From contig JAZKZE010000084.1 in NCBI GenBank assembly GCA_045612485.1, positions 692 to 64,691 on the forward strand: 64,000 nt of DNA, written 5' to 3'. Shown here piece after piece: positions 25,455 to 31,580 of this stretch (position 1 is its first letter; every line of letters starts with the position of its first letter). The position numbers and the translations under genes were made by a program. The stretch is from Victivallales bacterium (GTDB lineage Bacteria > Verrucomicrobiota > Lentisphaeria > Victivallales > UBA1829). The notes below the pieces were generated by a model, which saw only the letters and a list, made by a program, of their open reading frames with translations, ran no database searches and was not told the origin of the DNA.

Positions 25455-27377
25455 ATGGCACGGATAAAAAAAGATCTTTCAGATACTCCCGTATCCGTAA
25501 ACGGAAAAGGCAGGAGCTCCCCCCGTACAAAAAAAAGTTCCGGGGAAGAAATGGATAAATTAAAAAATTATGAACCCACTTCCGATACCCGGCCTTTCCT
25601 CCGGATCGGTATCATTGCCTTTTTCATCATGGTATGCTATACGGTCATTGCTTTGCGTCTGTGGGAGCTGCAGATCCTTTCCGGCAGCAAATATCAGGAA
25701 AAAGCGGCAAGACAGTATGCCAGACAGATCCGGATACCGGCAGTGAGAGGAAGGATCTTTTCTTCCGATAATCAACTTCTTGCAGGCAACAAAGTATCCT
25801 ATGATATTGTTTTTCATATTTCCGAAATGCGGCAATCCCCCAAATTTTATAAAAATGTGAAACATATCTACAAATGTGCCTCACAGGCTATGACCGTCAT
25901 CGGCAGGAAAATGGATATAACGGAAAAGGATATCATTCACCGTATGACCATTTATCCGGGTATTCCCATGACCATCTGTAAAAACCTCACAGCAGTGGAA
26001 CTTGCCCGTATTACGGAAATGCAGCCGCCCATCCAGGGGCTGGAAGTGGTTCCTGTCCCGGGAAGATATTATCCCGGGAAAAGTTTTGCCGCCCACCTTA
26101 TCGGTTATACAGGAACAAGTGATCCGGGAACAGCAGAGGACAGAAGGGAATTTTTCTATTATCTTCCCGATCCGGTGGGACGCGCCGGAGTGGAAAAACT
26201 CTGCAATGATGCGTTGCGCGGGGCTCCGGGAAAACGGCTTGTCATCGTGGACCACAGAGGCTTTGTCCATAAGGAGGCGGAAGCTCCCCAGAAAGCGGAA
26301 AACGGTTCGGATGTCGTGCTTACGATCAATGCAAAGGCCCAGAAGATCGCAGAAAACCTTCTTGCAGGAAAAAGAGGGGCGATCACTGTACTTGATGCCA
26401 ATACGGGGGAGATCATTGCCATGGCATCAGCCCCCTCTTACGATCTGAATGAATTTATACCCCGGATCTCTTCAAAAAAATATAAAGCACTTTTATACCA
26501 TCCGGGTCAACCCTTCCTCAACCGCAGTGCATTCGGTTCCTATATGCCCGGATCAGTGATCAAACCTCTTGTGGCAATGGCACTGCTTCAATCGGGAAAG
26601 AAAGAGAAGGATGATACGATCCGCTGTGACGGCTACACCCCCATTGCAGAAGCAAAGATCAAGTGTACCGCCTATCTGCGCGGCGGGCACGGTAAACTGG
26701 ATCTTGCGCGTGCCATTGAATTATCCTGCAATGATTATTTTATCGAAGCGGGCAAAATACTTGGGATCCATACCATTTCCTCTTTCTTTTCTTCATGCGG
26801 TATCGGTAAAAAATCCGGATTTCTTCTTTCGGAACGTTCCGGCCGCCTTCCCGATCCGAAAAGATACCGGAACTGGAATATTTATGATACAGCCCTTGTT
26901 TCCATCGGTCAGGGCAAAATTGAAATAACCCCGCTTCAGGCAGCACTTTACACAGCAGCCATCGCCAATGGAGGCACATTATACAAACCTATTCTTGTAA
27001 AAAATATAAAAGAGGAAAACGGCAGGGAACTTTTCAGTGCCGCACCGGAAAAAAACGGGCATCTTCCGGTATCATCCTCCGTTATTGATGCGGTAAAACA
27101 GGGAATGTTCCAGGCTGTCCACTCTTCCATGGGAAGTGCAAGGAGATCAAGAAACAGTTTTATTTCCCTGTCCGGCAAAACTGGTACAGCAGAAGTCGGT
27201 CCTAAGAATGCCCGCTATAAAAATACCTGGTTTATCGGCTTCGGCACTGTTCCTGCGGACGGCAAAAGGAAAAAGGCAACCACTTACGCTATTTCCATAC
27301 TTATCACCCATGGAGAATCCGGAGGCCTCACCTGCGCCCCCCTTGCCAGAGAATTTTTTGAACGATTTCTGCAATGA
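25455..27377 (+). CDS. mrdA: Penicillin-binding protein 2 (elongation transpeptidase)
   Basis: SxxK (PGSVIKP), SxN (LSCND) and KTG (SGKTGTAEV) motifs. N-terminal TM segment plus PBP dimerisation-like region. Confidence 0.9.
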   Translation: MARIKKDLSDTPVSVNGKGRSSPRTKKSSGEEMDKLKNYEPTSDTRPFLRIGIIAFFIMVCYTVIALRLWELQILSGSKYQEKAARQYARQIRIPAVRGRIFSSDNQLLAGNKVSYDIVFHISEMRQSPKFYKNVKHIYKCASQAMTVIGRKMDITEKDIIHRMTIYPGIPMTICKNLTAVELARITEMQPPIQGLEVVPVPGRYYPGKSFAAHLIGYTGTSDPGTAEDRREFFYYLPDPVGRAGVEKLCNDALRGAPGKRLVIVDHRGFVHKEAEAPQKAENGSDVVLTINAKAQKIAENLLAGKRGAITVLDANTGEIIAMASAPSYDLNEFIPRISSKKYKALLYHPGQPFLNRSAFGSYMPGSVIKPLVAMALLQSGKKEKDDTIRCDGYTPIAEAKIKCTAYLRGGHGKLDLARAIELSCNDYFIEAGKILGIHTISSFFSSCGIGKKSGFLLSERSGRLPDPKRYRNWNIYDTALVSIGQGKIEITPLQAALYTAAIANGGTLYKPILVKNIKEENGRELFSAAPEKNGHLPVSSSVIDAVKQGMFQAVHSSMGSARRSRNSFISLSGKTGTAEVGPKNARYKNTWFIGFGTVPADGKRKKATTYAISILITHGESGGLTCAPLAREFFERFLQ

Positions 27378-27390
27378 CCGCATAAAAAAA

Positions 27391-27425
27391 GGATCCGTCT
27401 CATTCTGAAACAGATCCTTTTTTTC
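27391..27425. terminator. Bidirectional terminator between mrdA and trpB2
   Basis: ggatccgt/acagatcc stem with one mismatch, flanked by an A-run (27384-27390) and a T-run (27418-27425). Confidence 0.5.
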
Positions 27426-27448
27426 TTTACTGTACGGAAAACTTCAAC

Positions 27449-28864
27449 TTATTTTCCCACAAGATCAAGTTTATCCAGACTTACAGCAAGTTCTTCATCG
27501 GTGGGGATGTAATCCCCCATTTTCCCGTCATTGAACTTACCATAGGAAACCATATCAAAGTACCCCGTTCCGGTAAGACCGAAAAGAATGGTTTCCGCTT
27601 TGTTCTCCTCACGGCAGCGGATGGCTTCTTTGATGGCAACACAAATGGCATGACTGCTTTCCGGTGCAGGAAGAGTTCCTTCCGTACGGGCAAAGAGTCT
27701 GGCGGCTTCAAAGACTTTTGTCTGTTCCACAGTGGTAGCTTCGATGAGATGGTCATCATAAAGCTGGGATACCACAGGACTCATGCCGTGATAACGCAAG
27801 CCGCCGGAGTGACTGGCTGCCGGCATAAAGGAACTGCCCAGAGTGTACATTTTTGCAAGCGGACAGATCCTGCCGGTATCGCAGTAGTCATAAGCATATC
27901 TTCCTCTCGTCAGGCTGGGACAGGAGGCAGGTTCCACGGCAATGAAACGGTAATCTTCCTCGCCGCGCAGTTTGGCTCCCATGAAAGGGGAAATGAGTCC
28001 GCCCACATTGGAACCGCCGCCGGCACAGCCGATGATCACATCCGGCTTGATACCGTACTTATCCATGGCAGCTTTTGCTTCAAGTCCGATAATACTCTGA
28101 TGCAGAAGCACCTGGGTGAGAACAGATCCCAGAACGTACCGGCAGGAAGGTGTATTCATTGCCTTTTCCACCGCTTCGGAAATAGCGCAGCCCAGACTTC
28201 CCACTGTGCCGGGGAATTCTTCCAAAATCTTCCTGCCCGCTTCCGTTGTCATGGAAGGGGAAGGAGTCACATCTGCGCCATAAGTACGCATGACTTCCCG
28301 GCGGAAAGGCTTCTGTTCATAGGAACATTTCACCATATATACATGGCAATCCAGTCCGAAAAAGGCACACGCCATGGAGAGAGCTGTTCCCCACTGTCCT
28401 GCACCGGTTTCGGTAGTGACACTTTTCAATCCCTGTTTTTTAGCGTAATAAGCCTGGGCAATGGCTGAATTGAGCTTATGGCTTCCGGAGGTATTGTTCC
28501 CTTCGAATTTATAATAGATCTTTGCGGGAGTGTTCAGGGCTTTTTCAAGGAAGTACGCACGCACCAAGGGGGCGGGACGGTACATCTTGTAAAAATTGAA
28601 CACGTCATCCGGAATGGGGAAATATGCGGTCGTATCATCCAGTTCCTGCTGAACGAGATCTTCGCAGAAGACTTTTCCCAGTTCCTCTGCGGTGATGGGC
28701 TGCATGGTGGCAGGATTCAGCAGGGGAGCAGGTTTGTTTTTCATATCAGCACGGACATTGTACCATGCGCGGGGCAATTCATCTTCAGGCAGATAGATCT
28801 TGTAAGGGATCTCCTGTGTTTTTGTCACTGTTTTACAATTTTTTTTCATTTCTTCCATACTCAT
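27449..28864 (-). CDS. trpB2: TrpB2-type (long) tryptophan synthase beta-like PLP enzyme
   Basis: 471 aa. PLP-lysine region KFEGNNTSGSHKLNSAIAQAYYAKKQG. Strong GGGAGGG RBS. Confidence 0.85.
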   Translation of the reverse strand: MSMEEMKKNCKTVTKTQEIPYKIYLPEDELPRAWYNVRADMKNKPAPLLNPATMQPITAEELGKVFCEDLVQQELDDTTAYFPIPDDVFNFYKMYRPAPLVRAYFLEKALNTPAKIYYKFEGNNTSGSHKLNSAIAQAYYAKKQGLKSVTTETGAGQWGTALSMACAFFGLDCHVYMVKCSYEQKPFRREVMRTYGADVTPSPSMTTEAGRKILEEFPGTVGSLGCAISEAVEKAMNTPSCRYVLGSVLTQVLLHQSIIGLEAKAAMDKYGIKPDVIIGCAGGGSNVGGLISPFMGAKLRGEEDYRFIAVEPASCPSLTRGRYAYDYCDTGRICPLAKMYTLGSSFMPAASHSGGLRYHGMSPVVSQLYDDHLIEATTVEQTKVFEAARLFARTEGTLPAPESSHAICVAIKEAIRCREENKAETILFGLTGTGYFDMVSYGKFNDGKMGDYIPTDEELAVSLDKLDLVGK

Positions 28865-28881
28865 TTTTTAGCCCTCCCTGA

Positions 28882-28918
28882 ATAAAAACACCCCTTCCGG
28901 CTCTTTTTCCGCAAGGGG
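28882..28918 (-). terminator. Second leader hairpin with U-tract, just upstream of the trpB2 RBS
   Basis: Minus strand: CCCCTTGCGG / CCGGAAGGGG (one mismatch), followed by TGTTTTTATT. Confidence 0.45.
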
Positions 28919-28925
28919 TTCCGTT

Positions 28926-28963
28926 AAAAAAAAACGCGGATCAAACATCCTTGTCCGATCCGC
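28926..28963 (-). terminator. Attenuator terminator in the trpB2 leader
   Basis: Minus strand: GCGGATC...GATCCGC followed by G and nine T residues (plus-strand A-run at 28926-28934). Confidence 0.65.
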
Positions 28964-28985
28964 CATGACTGCTTGCTGCTTTTTT

Positions 28986-29066
28986 TTACGCAAAAACCCC
29001 GGCCATGGCATAAGTACGCCAACGCCAGAAAAAGAAAGAAGAGTTGTTCATCGTATAAGTTTTCAT
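28986..29066 (-). CDS. Putative Trp leader peptide MKTYTMNNSSFFFWRWRTYAMAGVFA (26 aa)
   Basis: Hand-translated minus-strand sORF, absent from the ORF track because it is under 60 aa. It has two Trp codons at 29025-29027 and 29019-29021 and lies between a candidate promoter and the terminator hairpins. No SD is visible; it may be (nearly) leaderless. Confidence 0.55.
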   Translation of the reverse strand: MKTYTMNNSSFFFWRWRTYAMAGVFA

Positions 29067-29075
29067 AATGGGAAT

Positions 29076-29104
29076 AATTTACACGGGAAAGAAAAATTTG
29101 TCAA
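29076..29104 (-). promoter_or_regulatory. Candidate promoter of the trpB2 leader
   Basis: Minus strand: TTGACA (29104-29099), then 17 nt, then TAAATT (29081-29076). The leader ATG follows 9 nt later. Confidence 0.45.
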
Positions 29105-29222
29105 GGCATTTTTTGATTTTTTTTCATTTTTTCTTTCTTTATTCCTGTGTTATACTGTGGAAAGAATCTCTTTCCCGTGGTATATTAATAGGATGAATAA
29201 CAAAAACAATGCGGAGAAAACT

Positions 29223-30533
29223 ATGAGCAATTTTGAAAGTATGTCCGATGCCGCCATTGAGGAAGGCATGAAAAAAATAAAAGAATTTGCAGCCGGTATC
29301 TGCAAAGAAGATTATAAAAACAAAACCGTCATCTTCCTTGCAGACGGCATGGCAGATGAAAGTTTGCCTGAACTTTCCGGAAAGACCCCTGTGGAAGCGG
29401 TGGATACCCCTTATCTGGACAGTATCGCAAAAAACGGGGCAAGCGGAACATTCCTCACTCTTCCCGAAGGCTTTCCCACCTCCTCCGACGCTGCCAATAT
29501 GTCGGTAATGGGATACAGTCTTGCGCAATTCTATCCGGGAAGAGGTCCAATCGAAGCGGAAAGTCAGGGGATCGAACTCAAGGAAGATGATATTGCCTGG
29601 AGATGCAATGTCGTTTATTCTGAAGGCGGGACAAAGGGGATTCTGCGGGATTATTCCGCAGGGCATATTTCCAATGAAGTATCCTCTCAGCTTATCGCCG
29701 ATCTGAAAAAACACTTTGATTCCGATAAAGTAACGTTCCATCCCGGGGTGAGTTACCGCAATCTCCTTGTGCTTCACGGTAAAGAATTCAGCAGCAATGT
29801 AGATTATTACAAGCCGGATTCCTCCCAGGATATTGCTGTAAAAGATCTCCCCTATACAGCTCTTGACGATTCAAAGGAAGCCGCCCATACGGTGGAATTC
29901 ATCAATGATCTTGTAGAGAAAGCCTCTGCCTTCCTTGCGGCACATCCGCTGAACAGAGGTGTCAAATCCCCGGCAAATATGATCTGGCCCTGGAGTCCGG
30001 GTAAAAAGCCTTCCTTCACATCGTTTACAGAGAAGTACGAAGGAAAGACCGGGGCAGTCATCAGCGCGGTGGATGTGATCAAGGGGATCGCAAAATGTGC
30101 AAAAATGGATGTGATCGAGGTAGCCGGGGCAACCGGCTTTACCGATACAAATTACGAAGGGAAAGCCCTTGCCGCCCTGAAAGCATTAAAAGAACATGAT
30201 ATGGTATATCTGCATGTGGAAGCTATTGACGAGTGTTCCCATCTGGGCGATCTTCAGCAGAAGATGTTTGCCATTTCCCAGTTTGAAAACCGTCTGGTCA
30301 AACCGGTGATGGAAGCCTTGAAAGGCTGTGATGTGACCTTTGCCATTCTTCCCGATCATCCTGTTCCAATCCATGAAAGAGCCCACACAAGGACTCCCGT
30401 ACCGGTTGCTGTATGTGGAAAAAACATCAAACCGGATAATGTGGAAAAATACGGCGAAAGTTTTGTTAAAAACGGTTCTCTTGGAGCCATGTCCGGCGAA
30501 GAGTTCATGCGTCTGGTTCTGGGATTGAAGTAA
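29223..30533 (+). CDS. apgM: Cofactor-independent phosphoglycerate mutase, archaeal-type (ApgM family)
   Basis: VIFLADGMADESLPELSGKTPVEAVDTPYLDSIAKNGASGTFLTLPEGFPTSSDAANMSVMGY. The ATG at 29223 behind GGAG was chosen over the long upstream extension of ORF 28965. Confidence 0.8.
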   Translation: MSNFESMSDAAIEEGMKKIKEFAAGICKEDYKNKTVIFLADGMADESLPELSGKTPVEAVDTPYLDSIAKNGASGTFLTLPEGFPTSSDAANMSVMGYSLAQFYPGRGPIEAESQGIELKEDDIAWRCNVVYSEGGTKGILRDYSAGHISNEVSSQLIADLKKHFDSDKVTFHPGVSYRNLLVLHGKEFSSNVDYYKPDSSQDIAVKDLPYTALDDSKEAAHTVEFINDLVEKASAFLAAHPLNRGVKSPANMIWPWSPGKKPSFTSFTEKYEGKTGAVISAVDVIKGIAKCAKMDVIEVAGATGFTDTNYEGKALAALKALKEHDMVYLHVEAIDECSHLGDLQQKMFAISQFENRLVKPVMEALKGCDVTFAILPDHPVPIHERAHTRTPVPVAVCGKNIKPDNVEKYGESFVKNGSLGAMSGEEFMRLVLGLK

Positions 30534-30563
30534 GAAATCCCGCATTTCACAATAAAAAAAGCA

Positions 30564-30607
30564 TAAAAAAATCTCTGCTCTTTTCTTGAAGAGCAGAGAT
30601 TTTTTAT
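30564..30607. terminator. Bidirectional intrinsic terminator
   Basis: 12-bp stem atctctgctctt/aagagcagagat (30571-30582 and 30589-30600), with an A-run before and TTTTT after. Lies between convergent genes. Confidence 0.85.
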
Positions 30608-30659
30608 TCTGTAAATGATCTTTCCGACGGCAAACGCATACCGGAAAAGATGAAATTTC

Positions 30660-31580
30660 TTACTTGTCTTCCTTATTGACAAAAGTAATGACTCTCTGGG
30701 GGAAGGGAATATTGAATCCGCCGCCCTCAATGGTGCCTTTAAGCTGTTCTTTCACCATCCAGTAAGCATCCCAGTATTTGTCATTGGAAACCCAGAAACG
30801 CAAGTTGAGCTGTACGGAACTTTCTGCCAGTTCAGCCACCAGAACCTGAGGAGCAGGATCTTTAAGGATGATCTCATTATTTTCCAGCATTGCCTGAAGT
30901 GTTTTCAGTACAGCGGGAAGATCATCCCCGTAAGCGACCCTTACACCGATATCCGCACGCCTTGTGGCATTGCGGGAGTAGTTGGTGACCGGTCCGCCGA
31001 AAATCGCTGAATTGGGAACAGAAACAAAGATACCGTCAACGGTTTTGAGAGTTGTGGTGAAAAGTCCGATCTCTTCAATGGTACCGCTGACAGCTCCGCT
31101 GGTAATGAAATCCCCGGTCTTGTAGGGACGAAGGATCATAAGCATGACTCCGGCGGCAACATTACTGAGAGAGTCTTTCATGGCAAGACCGATAGTCAAA
31201 CCGGCAGCACCGAGAACCGTGACGATACTTGCTGTATTGACGCCGAAAAGATCAAGGATGACCAGGACGGCAAGCAGCCAGATCACGATTCTGGTGATGT
31301 TGAAAAATACTTTGTAAAGAGATTCATCCACCGCGGCGATCTTTTTGGGAGGATCGAGAATGAGTTTCTTTGCGATCCGGACACAAATACTTGCAATAAC
31401 CAGTGTCACAAGGGCAAGAAGCACACTTTTTCCGAATTTCAGAATGAGGTCATCATAAGCTGCCCACATTCCGCAGAGCGTTTCGATAAAAGAGCAGTTT
31501 TCCTTTGCGGGACAGGCTTCCGCCCCTTTTTTTACAGCTGCGGCTGTCTGGGCAGCGATCAATGTAAATACAGTTCCCAT
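30660..31580 (-). CDS. Mechanosensitive ion channel, MscS family
   Basis: TM region followed by PYKTGDFITSGAVSGTIEEIGLFTTTLKTVDGIFVSVPNSAIFGGPVTNYS. Confidence 0.85.
   Translation of the reverse strand: MGTVFTLIAAQTAAAVKKGAEACPAKENCSFIETLCGMWAAYDDLILKFGKSVLLALVTLVIASICVRIAKKLILDPPKKIAAVDESLYKVFFNITRIVIWLLAVLVILDLFGVNTASIVTVLGAAGLTIGLAMKDSLSNVAAGVMLMILRPYKTGDFITSGAVSGTIEEIGLFTTTLKTVDGIFVSVPNSAIFGGPVTNYSRNATRRADIGVRVAYGDDLPAVLKTLQAMLENNEIILKDPAPQVLVAELAESSVQLNLRFWVSNDKYWDAYWMVKEQLKGTIEGGGFNIPFPQRVITFVNKEDK

Follow-up and report, generated by a model that had tools for sequence, protein, structure and literature searches.

A predicted tryptophan leader-peptide attenuator with leaderless initiation upstream of trpB2 in Lentisphaerota

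In a stretch of 64,000 nucleotides (nt) from a Victivallales bacterium (GenBank assembly GCA_045612485.1, contig JAZKZE010000084.1, positions 692 to 64,691; hereafter the window, in whose numbering all coordinates are given), we have analyzed the leader of trpB2, a stand-alone gene for a TrpB-like enzyme, and find it quite probable that this leader is a ribosome-mediated leader-peptide transcription attenuator sensing the supply of charged tRNA-Trp. An earlier sequence-only reading of the same stretch had proposed that a Trp leader peptide controls an intrinsic terminator before trpB2, and the proposal is now supported by in-frame UGG codons in every homologous leader as well as by the synonymous variation of the codons flanking them; it is further backed by conserved and partly co-varying helices, by folding with the ribosome masked at different positions, and by the T-boxes found upstream of the orthologous gene in Firmicutes. 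What the analysis shows are the elements of the sequence and how far they are conserved, a coding signature in a short open reading frame (sORF), support for the helices and the thermodynamic behavior of a switch; the start of transcription, the translation of the sORF, the stalling of the ribosome and the response to Trp are inferred. We conclude that these leaders would constitute an unannotated family of Trp leader-peptide attenuators in Lentisphaerota, while the type of switch itself is already known.

The features of the locus are collected in Table 1. Those named by the sequence-only reading were all found on the minus strand where it had placed them: a promoter followed 9 nt on by an ATG, an sORF of 26 codons with two Trp codons, the three competing structures (a 1:2 hairpin, a 2:3 pairing and a 3:4 terminator with nine U residues, here called T1), and a second hairpin with a U run (H2) before the ribosome-binding site of trpB2. 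The promoter, TTGACA-17-TAAATT, scores 10/12 matches, and no better promoter-like site lies within positions 28400-29600. Between its -10 hexamer and the ATG of the sORF at 29066 lie only the 9 nt ATTCCCATT, and because this distance is invariant at 9 nt in the 14 aligned leaders described below, transcription is predicted to start at 29069-29066, giving a 5' untranslated region (UTR) of 0-3 nt (AUU) with no Shine-Dalgarno (SD) sequence. An ATG placed 9 nt after the -10 hexamer leaves no room for an SD sequence; with the predicted start, therefore, the mode of initiation must be leaderless, that is, on a leaderless mRNA or one with a 3-nt leader. The attenuator had been called classical, but its translation start is not, as the ATG stands 9 nt from the -10 hexamer in 14 of 14 sequences and has no SD sequence. 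Early loading of a single ribosome on such a leaderless message would suit the coupling that an attenuator needs. Also, a W-(x)-W motif occurs in nine of the 509 ATG-initiated sORFs with 10-40 codons that the two strands of the window contain, and among those nine, only the leader sORF, the stop codon of which is at 28988, has a run of at least six T within 120 nt downstream. That this sORF is unique among 509 argues that the combination has not come about by chance.

Table 1. Features of the trpB2 locus in the window (U9, U5 and A8 denote runs of nine U, five U and eight A)
Feature	Positions	Strand	Remarks
-35 hexamer TTGACA	29099-29104	minus	kept in 13/14 homologous leaders
-10 hexamer TAAATT, 17-nt spacer	29076-29081	minus	TATAGT or TACAGT in relatives, spacing invariant
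Predicted transcription start	29067-29069	minus	7th nt past the -10 hexamer is A at 29069, within invariant (C/T)ATTATG
Leader sORF, 26 codons and stop, MKTYTMNNSSFFFWRWRTYAMAGVFA	28986-29066	minus	homologous sORFs in all related leaders
Regulatory codons UGG-CGU-UGG (W14 R15 W16)	29019-29027	minus	UGG at 29027-29025 and 29021-29019
1:2 anti-antiterminator hairpin UGGCGU-ACUU-AUGCCA	29006-29021	minus	-6.6 kcal/mol; forms in the fold without a ribosome
Segment 2, GCCAUGGC (5' half of antiterminator)	29002-29009	minus	position-homologous helix in relatives
Segment A, GGGGUUUU (29000-28993) and A8 (28987-28980)	28980-29000	minus	3' end of sORF and just past it; can pair with 28915-28934
Segment 3, GUCAUGGC (3' half of antiterminator)	28962-28969	minus	shares its last 2 nt with the beginning of the T1 stem
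Terminator T1	28926-28963	minus	12-base-pair hairpin 28963-28936, -18.8 kcal/mol, then G and U9 at 28934-28926
Segment B, GGAACCCC	28915-28922	minus	partner of segment A, overlaps the 5' arm of H2
Hairpin H2	28884-28919	minus	hairpin 28919-28890, -18.6 kcal/mol, then G and U5 at 28888-28884
SD sequence of trpB2, GGGAGGG	28872-28878	minus	
trpB2	27449-28864	minus	471 amino acids, ATG at 28864; TrpB-like enzyme dependent on pyridoxal phosphate (PLP)
Intrinsic terminator 3' of trpB2	27384-27430	minus	hairpin is part of a sub-threshold Thr_leader match

The leader of 206 nt folds with a z-score of -3.8 against shuffled sequences. Its 1:2 hairpin contains the W16 codon and is retained in the related leader L163, where an A-to-G change gives a U.G pair. 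The 2:3 helix, GCCAUGGC/GUCAUGGC, has eight base pairs (bp) including one G.U pair, and reaches -17.5 kcal/mol when folded with its interior. In the clade of the window, the 2:3 helix overlaps T1 by 2-3 nt and thus cuts the 12-bp stem to 10 bp, and the clipped stem is set apart from the U9 run by GCG. A stronger antiterminator against the 5' arm of T1 was sought in this clade by a manual complement search and by masked minimum free energy (MFE) folding, and none was found to beat the 2:3 helix.

Homologous leaders are present at 18 loci (L001, L002, L081-L084, L161-L164 and L166-L173), all from Lentisphaeria/Victivallaceae wherever named, and 14 distinct sequences were aligned. The comparison of regions upstream of trpB2 orthologues had been suggested together with the original claim; it revealed conserved Trp codons and partly co-varying stems. 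Unlike TrpB2 itself, the homologous leaders occur only beside the closest TrpB2 orthologues, and searches with nhmmer using leader profiles of three and 14 sequences over 160 and 174 loci, respectively, returned no members beyond the 18. The loci on the side of the window encode TrpB2 with identities of 98% (L161 and L162), 92% (L163), 85% (L164) and, relative to the window, 79% (L171, from a metagenome-assembled genome (MAG) of Victivallaceae), and a second clade of leaders comprises L001, L002, L081-L084, L166-L170, L172 and L173. The upstream gene is apgM-like in the window clade versus an oxidoreductase of the GFO/IDH/MocA type at the loci with type-I leaders; this difference in the neighbor between the clades suggests that the leader travels with trpB2.

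Throughout the alignment, the promoter and the beginning of the sORF are kept in a fixed arrangement. TTGACA is found in 13 of the 14 leaders (TTGCAA in L171), and all 14 have the 17-nt spacer, a -10 hexamer reading TAAATT, TATAGT or TACAGT, and an invariant ATTATG (preceded by C, or by T in L164), the ATG of which stands exactly 9 nt after the -10 hexamer. Every homologue has one to four in-frame UGG codons and a strong terminator. The distance from the AUG to the first UGG, furthermore, is 39, 33 or 30 nt in three lineages and hence always a multiple of three. The encoded peptides are MKTYTINNSSFFFWRWRPYAMAGVFA, MKTYIENKSSFFFWRWRRCAMAGVFA, MKTHFVNTSSAFSRRWRFCSSAGVSA, MKQAIFTNMNWYWWWRTSVTAGMLA, MKKNTYINFFDWRWCRR, MEKNTFKHFFDWRWCWR, MKKNAYINFFDWRWCRG, MKKNAYIDFFDWRWC, MEKNTFKCFFDWRWSRRIRPDRAF, MDKNTFKSFFDWRRLRQ, MDKNTFKNFFDWRWYRH and MSKNTFKSFFDWRWCWR. 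Among the nine type-I sequences, the codons for F9, F10, D11 and R13 differ only at synonymous third positions, which is a signature of translation, and codons 2, 5-8 and 15 change the amino acid. The invariant AUG, the frame kept in three length classes and the codons with only synonymous variation are thus the pattern expected of a translated sORF.

The helices are also supported by the alignment. For T1, 96.4% of the cells are paired in the 14 sequences versus 24-54% when the 3' partner is slid, and one of its pairs is GC in eight and AU in five sequences, a compensatory change. For the antiterminator, in the register of L166, 84% of the cells are paired versus 22-40% when slid. Column 186 in segment 3, which is G or A, matches both its partner in segment 2 (CG in five, UA in five and UG in four sequences) and its partner in segment 4; this column thus tracks two alternative partners, as an attenuator predicts.

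Some loci outside the 18 deserve mention. One Lentisphaeria locus with a TrpB2 of 83% identity (L165, positions 1300-1512) has a TTGACA-17-TATAGT promoter and a hairpin before the SD sequence without the sORF and T1, and looks like a natural deletion of a modular attenuator. Trp-rich sORFs were also noticed upstream of TrpB2 on metagenome contigs: in L109 (positions 1710-1900), the sORF MQKNLYIAGHFYWWWRG with its ATG about 7 nt after a -10-like hexamer precedes a hairpin and a U tract, and in L093, L099 and L100, the sORF MITFCNNNSWWWRSYFLQKS lies about 190 nt upstream of TrpB2 and is likewise followed by a hairpin and a U tract. These sORFs are unlike those of the window clade in sequence, and their presence suggests that the arrangement is wider than that clade.

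To model the ribosome, we masked 15 nt on the 5' side and 12 nt on the 3' side of the A-site codon, a footprint assumed from typical ones, and the transcripts were folded up to a point just before the 3' arm of the terminator. In the type-I clade and in L164 and L171, a ribosome stalled at the first UGG leads segment 2 to pair with the lowest 6-8 nt of the 5' arm of T1 at a probability (P) of about 1. In the type-I leaders L001, L081, L166, L167 and L172, the lowest 4 nt of this arm are free (P of 0-0.2 for pairing) once the ribosome has reached the stop codon or is left out. The type-I stop codon adjoins segment 2. In the window clade, the stalled ribosome leads to sequestration of only the bottom 2-3 nt of the 5' arm of T1, and when the whole terminator of the window is folded at equilibrium, its two bottom pairs form with P of 0.02 and 0.07 in the stalled state versus 0.94-1.0 in the stop-codon and ribosome-free states. 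The masked folding hence behaves as a switch with the position of the ribosome, which supports attenuation. The logic of trpL that had been ascribed to this leader is consistent with these results, since the 1:2, 2:3 and 3:4 alternative pairings are the same and segment 2 pairs with segment 3 in the stalled-ribosome folds. Two details of the sequence-only reading, nonetheless, fared less well. A ribosome at the stop codon was thought to cover segment 2, but the stop codon of the window begins 14 nt past the end of segment 2, so that a ribosome protecting about 15 nt upstream of the A site would hide no more than the final 1-2 nt of the segment and leave the rest exposed; as such a ribosome barely covers segment 2, the 1:2 hairpin would have to recapture it in the window clade. 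Also, the 2:3 pairing had been described as competing with T1; the overlap is there, at 2-3 nt, but it shortens the stem from 12 to 10 bp and does not abolish it.

Based on these features, we propose the following course of events. Transcription would start about 7 nt after TAAATT, so that the AUG is at the very 5' end of the mRNA or 3 nt from it, and a 70S ribosome would load at the 5' end without an SD sequence. When Trp is plentiful, the ribosome would pass W14-R-W16 and segment 2 and reach the stop at 28988; segment 2, being first inside the passing ribosome, would afterwards be taken up by segment 1 as the 1:2 hairpin forms, T1 with its 12 bp would fold against U9, and RNA polymerase would terminate. 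When tRNA-Trp is scarce, the ribosome stalled at UGG would cover segment 1 and leave segment 2 free to pair with segment 3 upon its emergence. This 2:3 pairing would sequester the bottom 6-8 nt of the 5' arm of T1 in the relatives, while in the window clade it would remove two bottom G-C pairs and shift the stem by 3 nt from the U tract, and termination would be weakened rather than abolished. Transcripts that read through T1 would reach H2 and its U run, and the 3' end of the sORF could sequester the 5' arm of H2 when no ribosome is there.

Several points weigh against this interpretation. The hairpin left after the overlap of 2-3 nt still has 10 bp and about -13 kcal/mol and might still terminate. 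In the masked fold of the window clade, most of segment 2 stays accessible when the ribosome is parked at the stop codon, and the register of the 1:2 hairpin differs across the clades. Two lineages (L164; and L166, L167 and L170) have a single Trp codon. A message with a 3-nt leader (AUUAUG) may be translated poorly, and the transcription start is itself a prediction. Furthermore, the aligned sequences are related, so that few independent co-variation events are available, and the shuffle control yields no probability; the support for the helices is hence not a statistical proof.

The second hairpin raises the question of a further level of control. H2 has the appearance of a terminator in the window clade. 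Nearly all the homologues have a hairpin in this place between T1 and the SD sequence, with a sequence that is quite unlike, and so has L165, which lacks the attenuator; examples of its arms are ACCCCUU/AAGGGGU, GGCAGCC/GGCUGUC, GGCAGUC/GACUGCC and GCCCUCUG/CGGGGGGC. This hairpin is weak in L171, and L002 and L083 were folded in part, with both arms visible in the alignment. At least five U residues follow it only in the window clade, L164 and L082, and its role could be that of a second terminator, a stabilizer of the mRNA or a translational element. In the window, moreover, a long-range helix between GGGGUUUU plus A8 and U9 plus GGAACCCC encloses T1 and occupies the 5' arm of H2; the pairing of segment A is seen in the MFE structure of the free leader and in the stalled-ribosome folds. 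L171 has a corresponding helix of GGAUGCUUGC with GCAAGCGUCC, and L164 has one of a third sequence, so that an equal topology with different sequences is found in the three lineages with long sORFs (the window clade, L164 and L171). In the window, a ribosome stalled at Trp leaves the 5' arm of H2 sequestered with P of 0.9-1.0, and one at the stop codon mostly with P of 0.1-0.7; the state without a ribosome sequesters the arm likewise. H2 might then act as a second checkpoint set by a ribosome at the stop codon; the idea is speculative because the ribosome would have to stay at the stop codon for about 100 more nt and because the arm is also sequestered without a ribosome. A still broader scheme, in which one leaderless ribosome serves a nested attenuator with two checkpoints (the 2:3 pairing clips the base of T1, and occupancy of the 3' end of the sORF decides on H2) and in which leaders of the trpL type share ancestry across phyla, as an identity of 15 nt between L171 and E. 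coli trpL might indicate, and became attached to a trpB2 that spreads horizontally, appears unlikely to us.

Other explanations for the conserved leader have to be weighed against attenuation. The string UGGCG(C/U)UGG could be bound by a trans-acting factor, either a TRAP- or PyrR-like protein or uncharged tRNA-Trp as in a T-box, which would stabilize the antiterminator and make the sORF incidental. UGG-CGN-UGG is indeed conserved at the nucleotide level in or beside segment 1, and the orthologues in Firmicutes do use a tRNA-sensing T-box; we nonetheless regard this mechanism as very improbable. No Rfam family, T-box included, matches the leader of the window or those of the 11 relatives scanned at E-values up to 10, a scan of L001 and L002 at the gathering thresholds was empty, and the T-box core motif GGTGGNACCNCG is absent upstream of the first 80 TrpB2 loci. 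A T-box would need a longer leader than the roughly 140 nt that run as far as the terminator, and there are no arrays of (G/U)AG repeats. Such a factor would also leave unexplained the fixed distance between the AUG and the -10 hexamer, the in-frame UGG in three length classes and the variation restricted to synonymous changes. Translation could matter in another way, namely through an arrest peptide of the TnaC type, where the nascent FF(D/F)WRW senses free Trp or indole and the stalled ribosome sets the fold of the RNA, so that the supply of the codon is not the signal. F9, F10, D11, W12 and R13 are conserved as amino acids in type I beyond the need of a codon sensor, and with indole as a substrate of TrpB2, an induction by indole would be sensible. 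Between the clades, however, the peptides diverge (SSFFFWRW, FFDWRW and NMNWYWWW), with only the Trp and Arg codons in common; the number of Trp codons varies from one to four, as expected of a codon sensor; the stop falls at codon 16, 18, 25, 26 or 27, which makes a fixed stall at the stop as in TnaC unlikely; and termination is intrinsic and not Rho-dependent. We thus give an arrest peptide little credence.

Without any cis control by Trp codons, alternatively, the leader might be a constitutive leaky tandem terminator, or a source of a small RNA or peptide functioning in trans as do rnTrpL and peTrpL of Sinorhizobium meliloti, in which a trans-acting attenuator RNA and peptide are documented (PMC6614838, PMC7298713). 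In the window clade, the 2:3 helix has only a marginal effect on T1, a strong terminator at -18.8 kcal/mol, and pairing of the A8 tract with the U tail could stabilize the terminated RNA; both would fit this possibility. The full-size antiterminators of the relatives, however, switch cleanly with the position of the ribosome, and the bases of segments 2, 3 and 4 co-vary; a function in trans, furthermore, would add to attenuation in cis and not exclude it. We hence consider it highly unlikely that the leader acts without control in cis, and favor ribosome-mediated attenuation in response to charged tRNA-Trp.

As regards the gene under control, the product of trpB2 is assigned as a TrpB-like PLP enzyme by NF009057 (671 bits against a cutoff of 366), and enzymes of the TrpB2 family use indole as a substrate. 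The gene is monocistronic and is followed on its 3' side by a terminator and then by the convergent mrdA gene. A match of the Rfam model Thr_leader at 27384-27464 on the minus strand (34.8 bits versus a gathering score of 55) was rejected as a leader: it aligns through the terminator hairpin and a short 5' stem, and 36 nt are absent from the leader-peptide region, so that it merely represents the terminator of trpB2, the region of which is placed between trpB2 and the convergent mrdA. Apart from this locus, a long perfect hairpin (AAAAAAAUCUCUGCUCUU...AAGAGCAGAGAUUUUUUU) was noticed at 30524-30666 between the end of the apgM-like gene and a convergent mscS-like gene; with sub-threshold matches to small RNA models on both strands, it has the appearance of a bidirectional terminator. 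The neighboring PBP2 protein has its closest named relatives, at 77-91% identity, in Lentisphaeria MAGs, and its remaining named matches belong to Lentisphaerae, Victivallaceae or unclassified 'bacterium' MAGs, which places the window in an uncultured member of the Lentisphaeria. The related contigs derive mostly from samples of rumen and gut. From Lentisphaeria and Kiritimatiellia to Treponema and many Clostridia of these habitats, TrpB2 keeps an identity of 75-82% (loci L001-L160), and this high identity across phyla suggests a recent horizontal spread among gut anaerobes.

If our interpretation is correct, leader-peptide attenuation with leaderless initiation would be extended to Lentisphaerota, a little-studied phylum in the Planctomycetes-Verrucomicrobia-Chlamydiae (PVC) group; our literature search found no paper combining Lentisphaerae, leader peptide and attenuation. 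One horizontally mobile gene would then have a T-box as its sensor of tRNA-Trp charging in Firmicutes and an unrelated sensor, the leader peptide, in Lentisphaeria. This would support the idea that the stand-alone TrpB2 is induced by Trp starvation in gut and rumen bacteria, probably for salvage of indole. The alignment of the leaders could also seed a new RNA family and help to annotate small open reading frames in MAGs.

Among known systems, trpL of Escherichia coli follows the logic proposed here. Here as there, a leader peptide has adjacent Trp codons followed by Arg (...FWRWRTY... in the window and MKQAIF...WWWRTS... in L171), and the alternative 1:2, 2:3 and 3:4 pairings end in an intrinsic terminator with a U tract. 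The E. coli leader, however, has a 5' UTR of 26 nt with an SD sequence, in contrast to an AUG at 9 nt from the -10 hexamer; it regulates trpEDCBA and not a stand-alone trpB2, for which there is a second hairpin in addition; and its 2:3 pairing covers most of segment 3, whereas the overlap with the terminator is 2-3 nt in the window clade. The Rfam model of the Trp leader (RF00513) gave no match at E-values up to 10 in the window at 27000-31000 or at 11 related loci, and a local alignment of the window with E. coli trpL found no significant nucleotide similarity (z = 0.5). When all the leaders were aligned to E. coli trpL, only L171 was significant, and we do not claim, therefore, that the leader of the window is homologous to E. 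coli trpL. L171 (positions 1021-1100) shares with E. coli trpL (L174) an exact string of 15 nt, UGGUGGCGCACUUCC, encoding W-W-R-T-S (z = 7.5, 0 of 300 shuffles), and its peptide begins with MKQAIF as compared with MKAIF in E. coli; whether this likeness reflects homology or convergence, we cannot tell.

Leaderless attenuators have precedents in other phyla. The trpL/rnTrpL transcript of S. meliloti starts at the ATG of the leader sORF and is thus a leaderless mRNA (PMC7298713), and its leader peptide with Trp codons attenuates the transcription of a single trp gene (PMC6614838). This system resembles the one proposed here in having a leaderless sORF with Trp codons and one attenuated trp gene, a likeness by description; it differs in belonging to Alphaproteobacteria, in controlling trpE(G) and in the documented trans functions of its RNA and peptide. 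The trp attenuators of Corynebacterium and Streptomyces have two to three UGG codons, GC-rich terminators and complementary triples shared between antiterminator and terminator (PMC1262725), and leaderless short ORFs of mycobacteria are attenuators responding to amino acids (bioRxiv 10.1101/834739). These actinobacterial systems are of another phylum and other sequences, and the mycobacterial ones sense Cys and have no intrinsic terminator. Arrest peptides of the TnaC type keep Trp, Asp and a C-terminal Pro at fixed distances, stall at the stop codon and act on Rho-dependent termination; in comparison, the leaders described here have no terminal Pro, their peptide and stop position vary between the clades, and their terminator is intrinsic. 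What they share with leader-peptide attenuators is a promoter-proximal sORF with Trp codons, a TrpB-like gene downstream and an intrinsic terminator between them.

A functional counterpart on the orthologous gene is the Trp T-box of clostridia. T-boxes were detected with Rfam upstream of clostridial TrpB2 at L006, L009, L012 and L015 (93-97 bits versus a gathering score of 93), where the TrpB2 orthologues have 75-80% amino-acid identity, and about 76-78% at these four loci; the same model (RF00230), which does detect the clostridial ones, gave no match in the window or the related Lentisphaeria leaders. The two arrangements share the orthologous gene, the signal (charging of tRNA-Trp) and the output (read-through of a terminator). 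They differ in that the T-box senses uncharged tRNA directly through RNA-RNA contacts with no translation, whereas the leaders of Lentisphaeria have no features of a T-box and would rely on a translated sORF. The presence of a T-box on the same gene in clostridia thus suggests that control of trpB2 by tRNA-Trp charging is recurrent and has arisen more than once.

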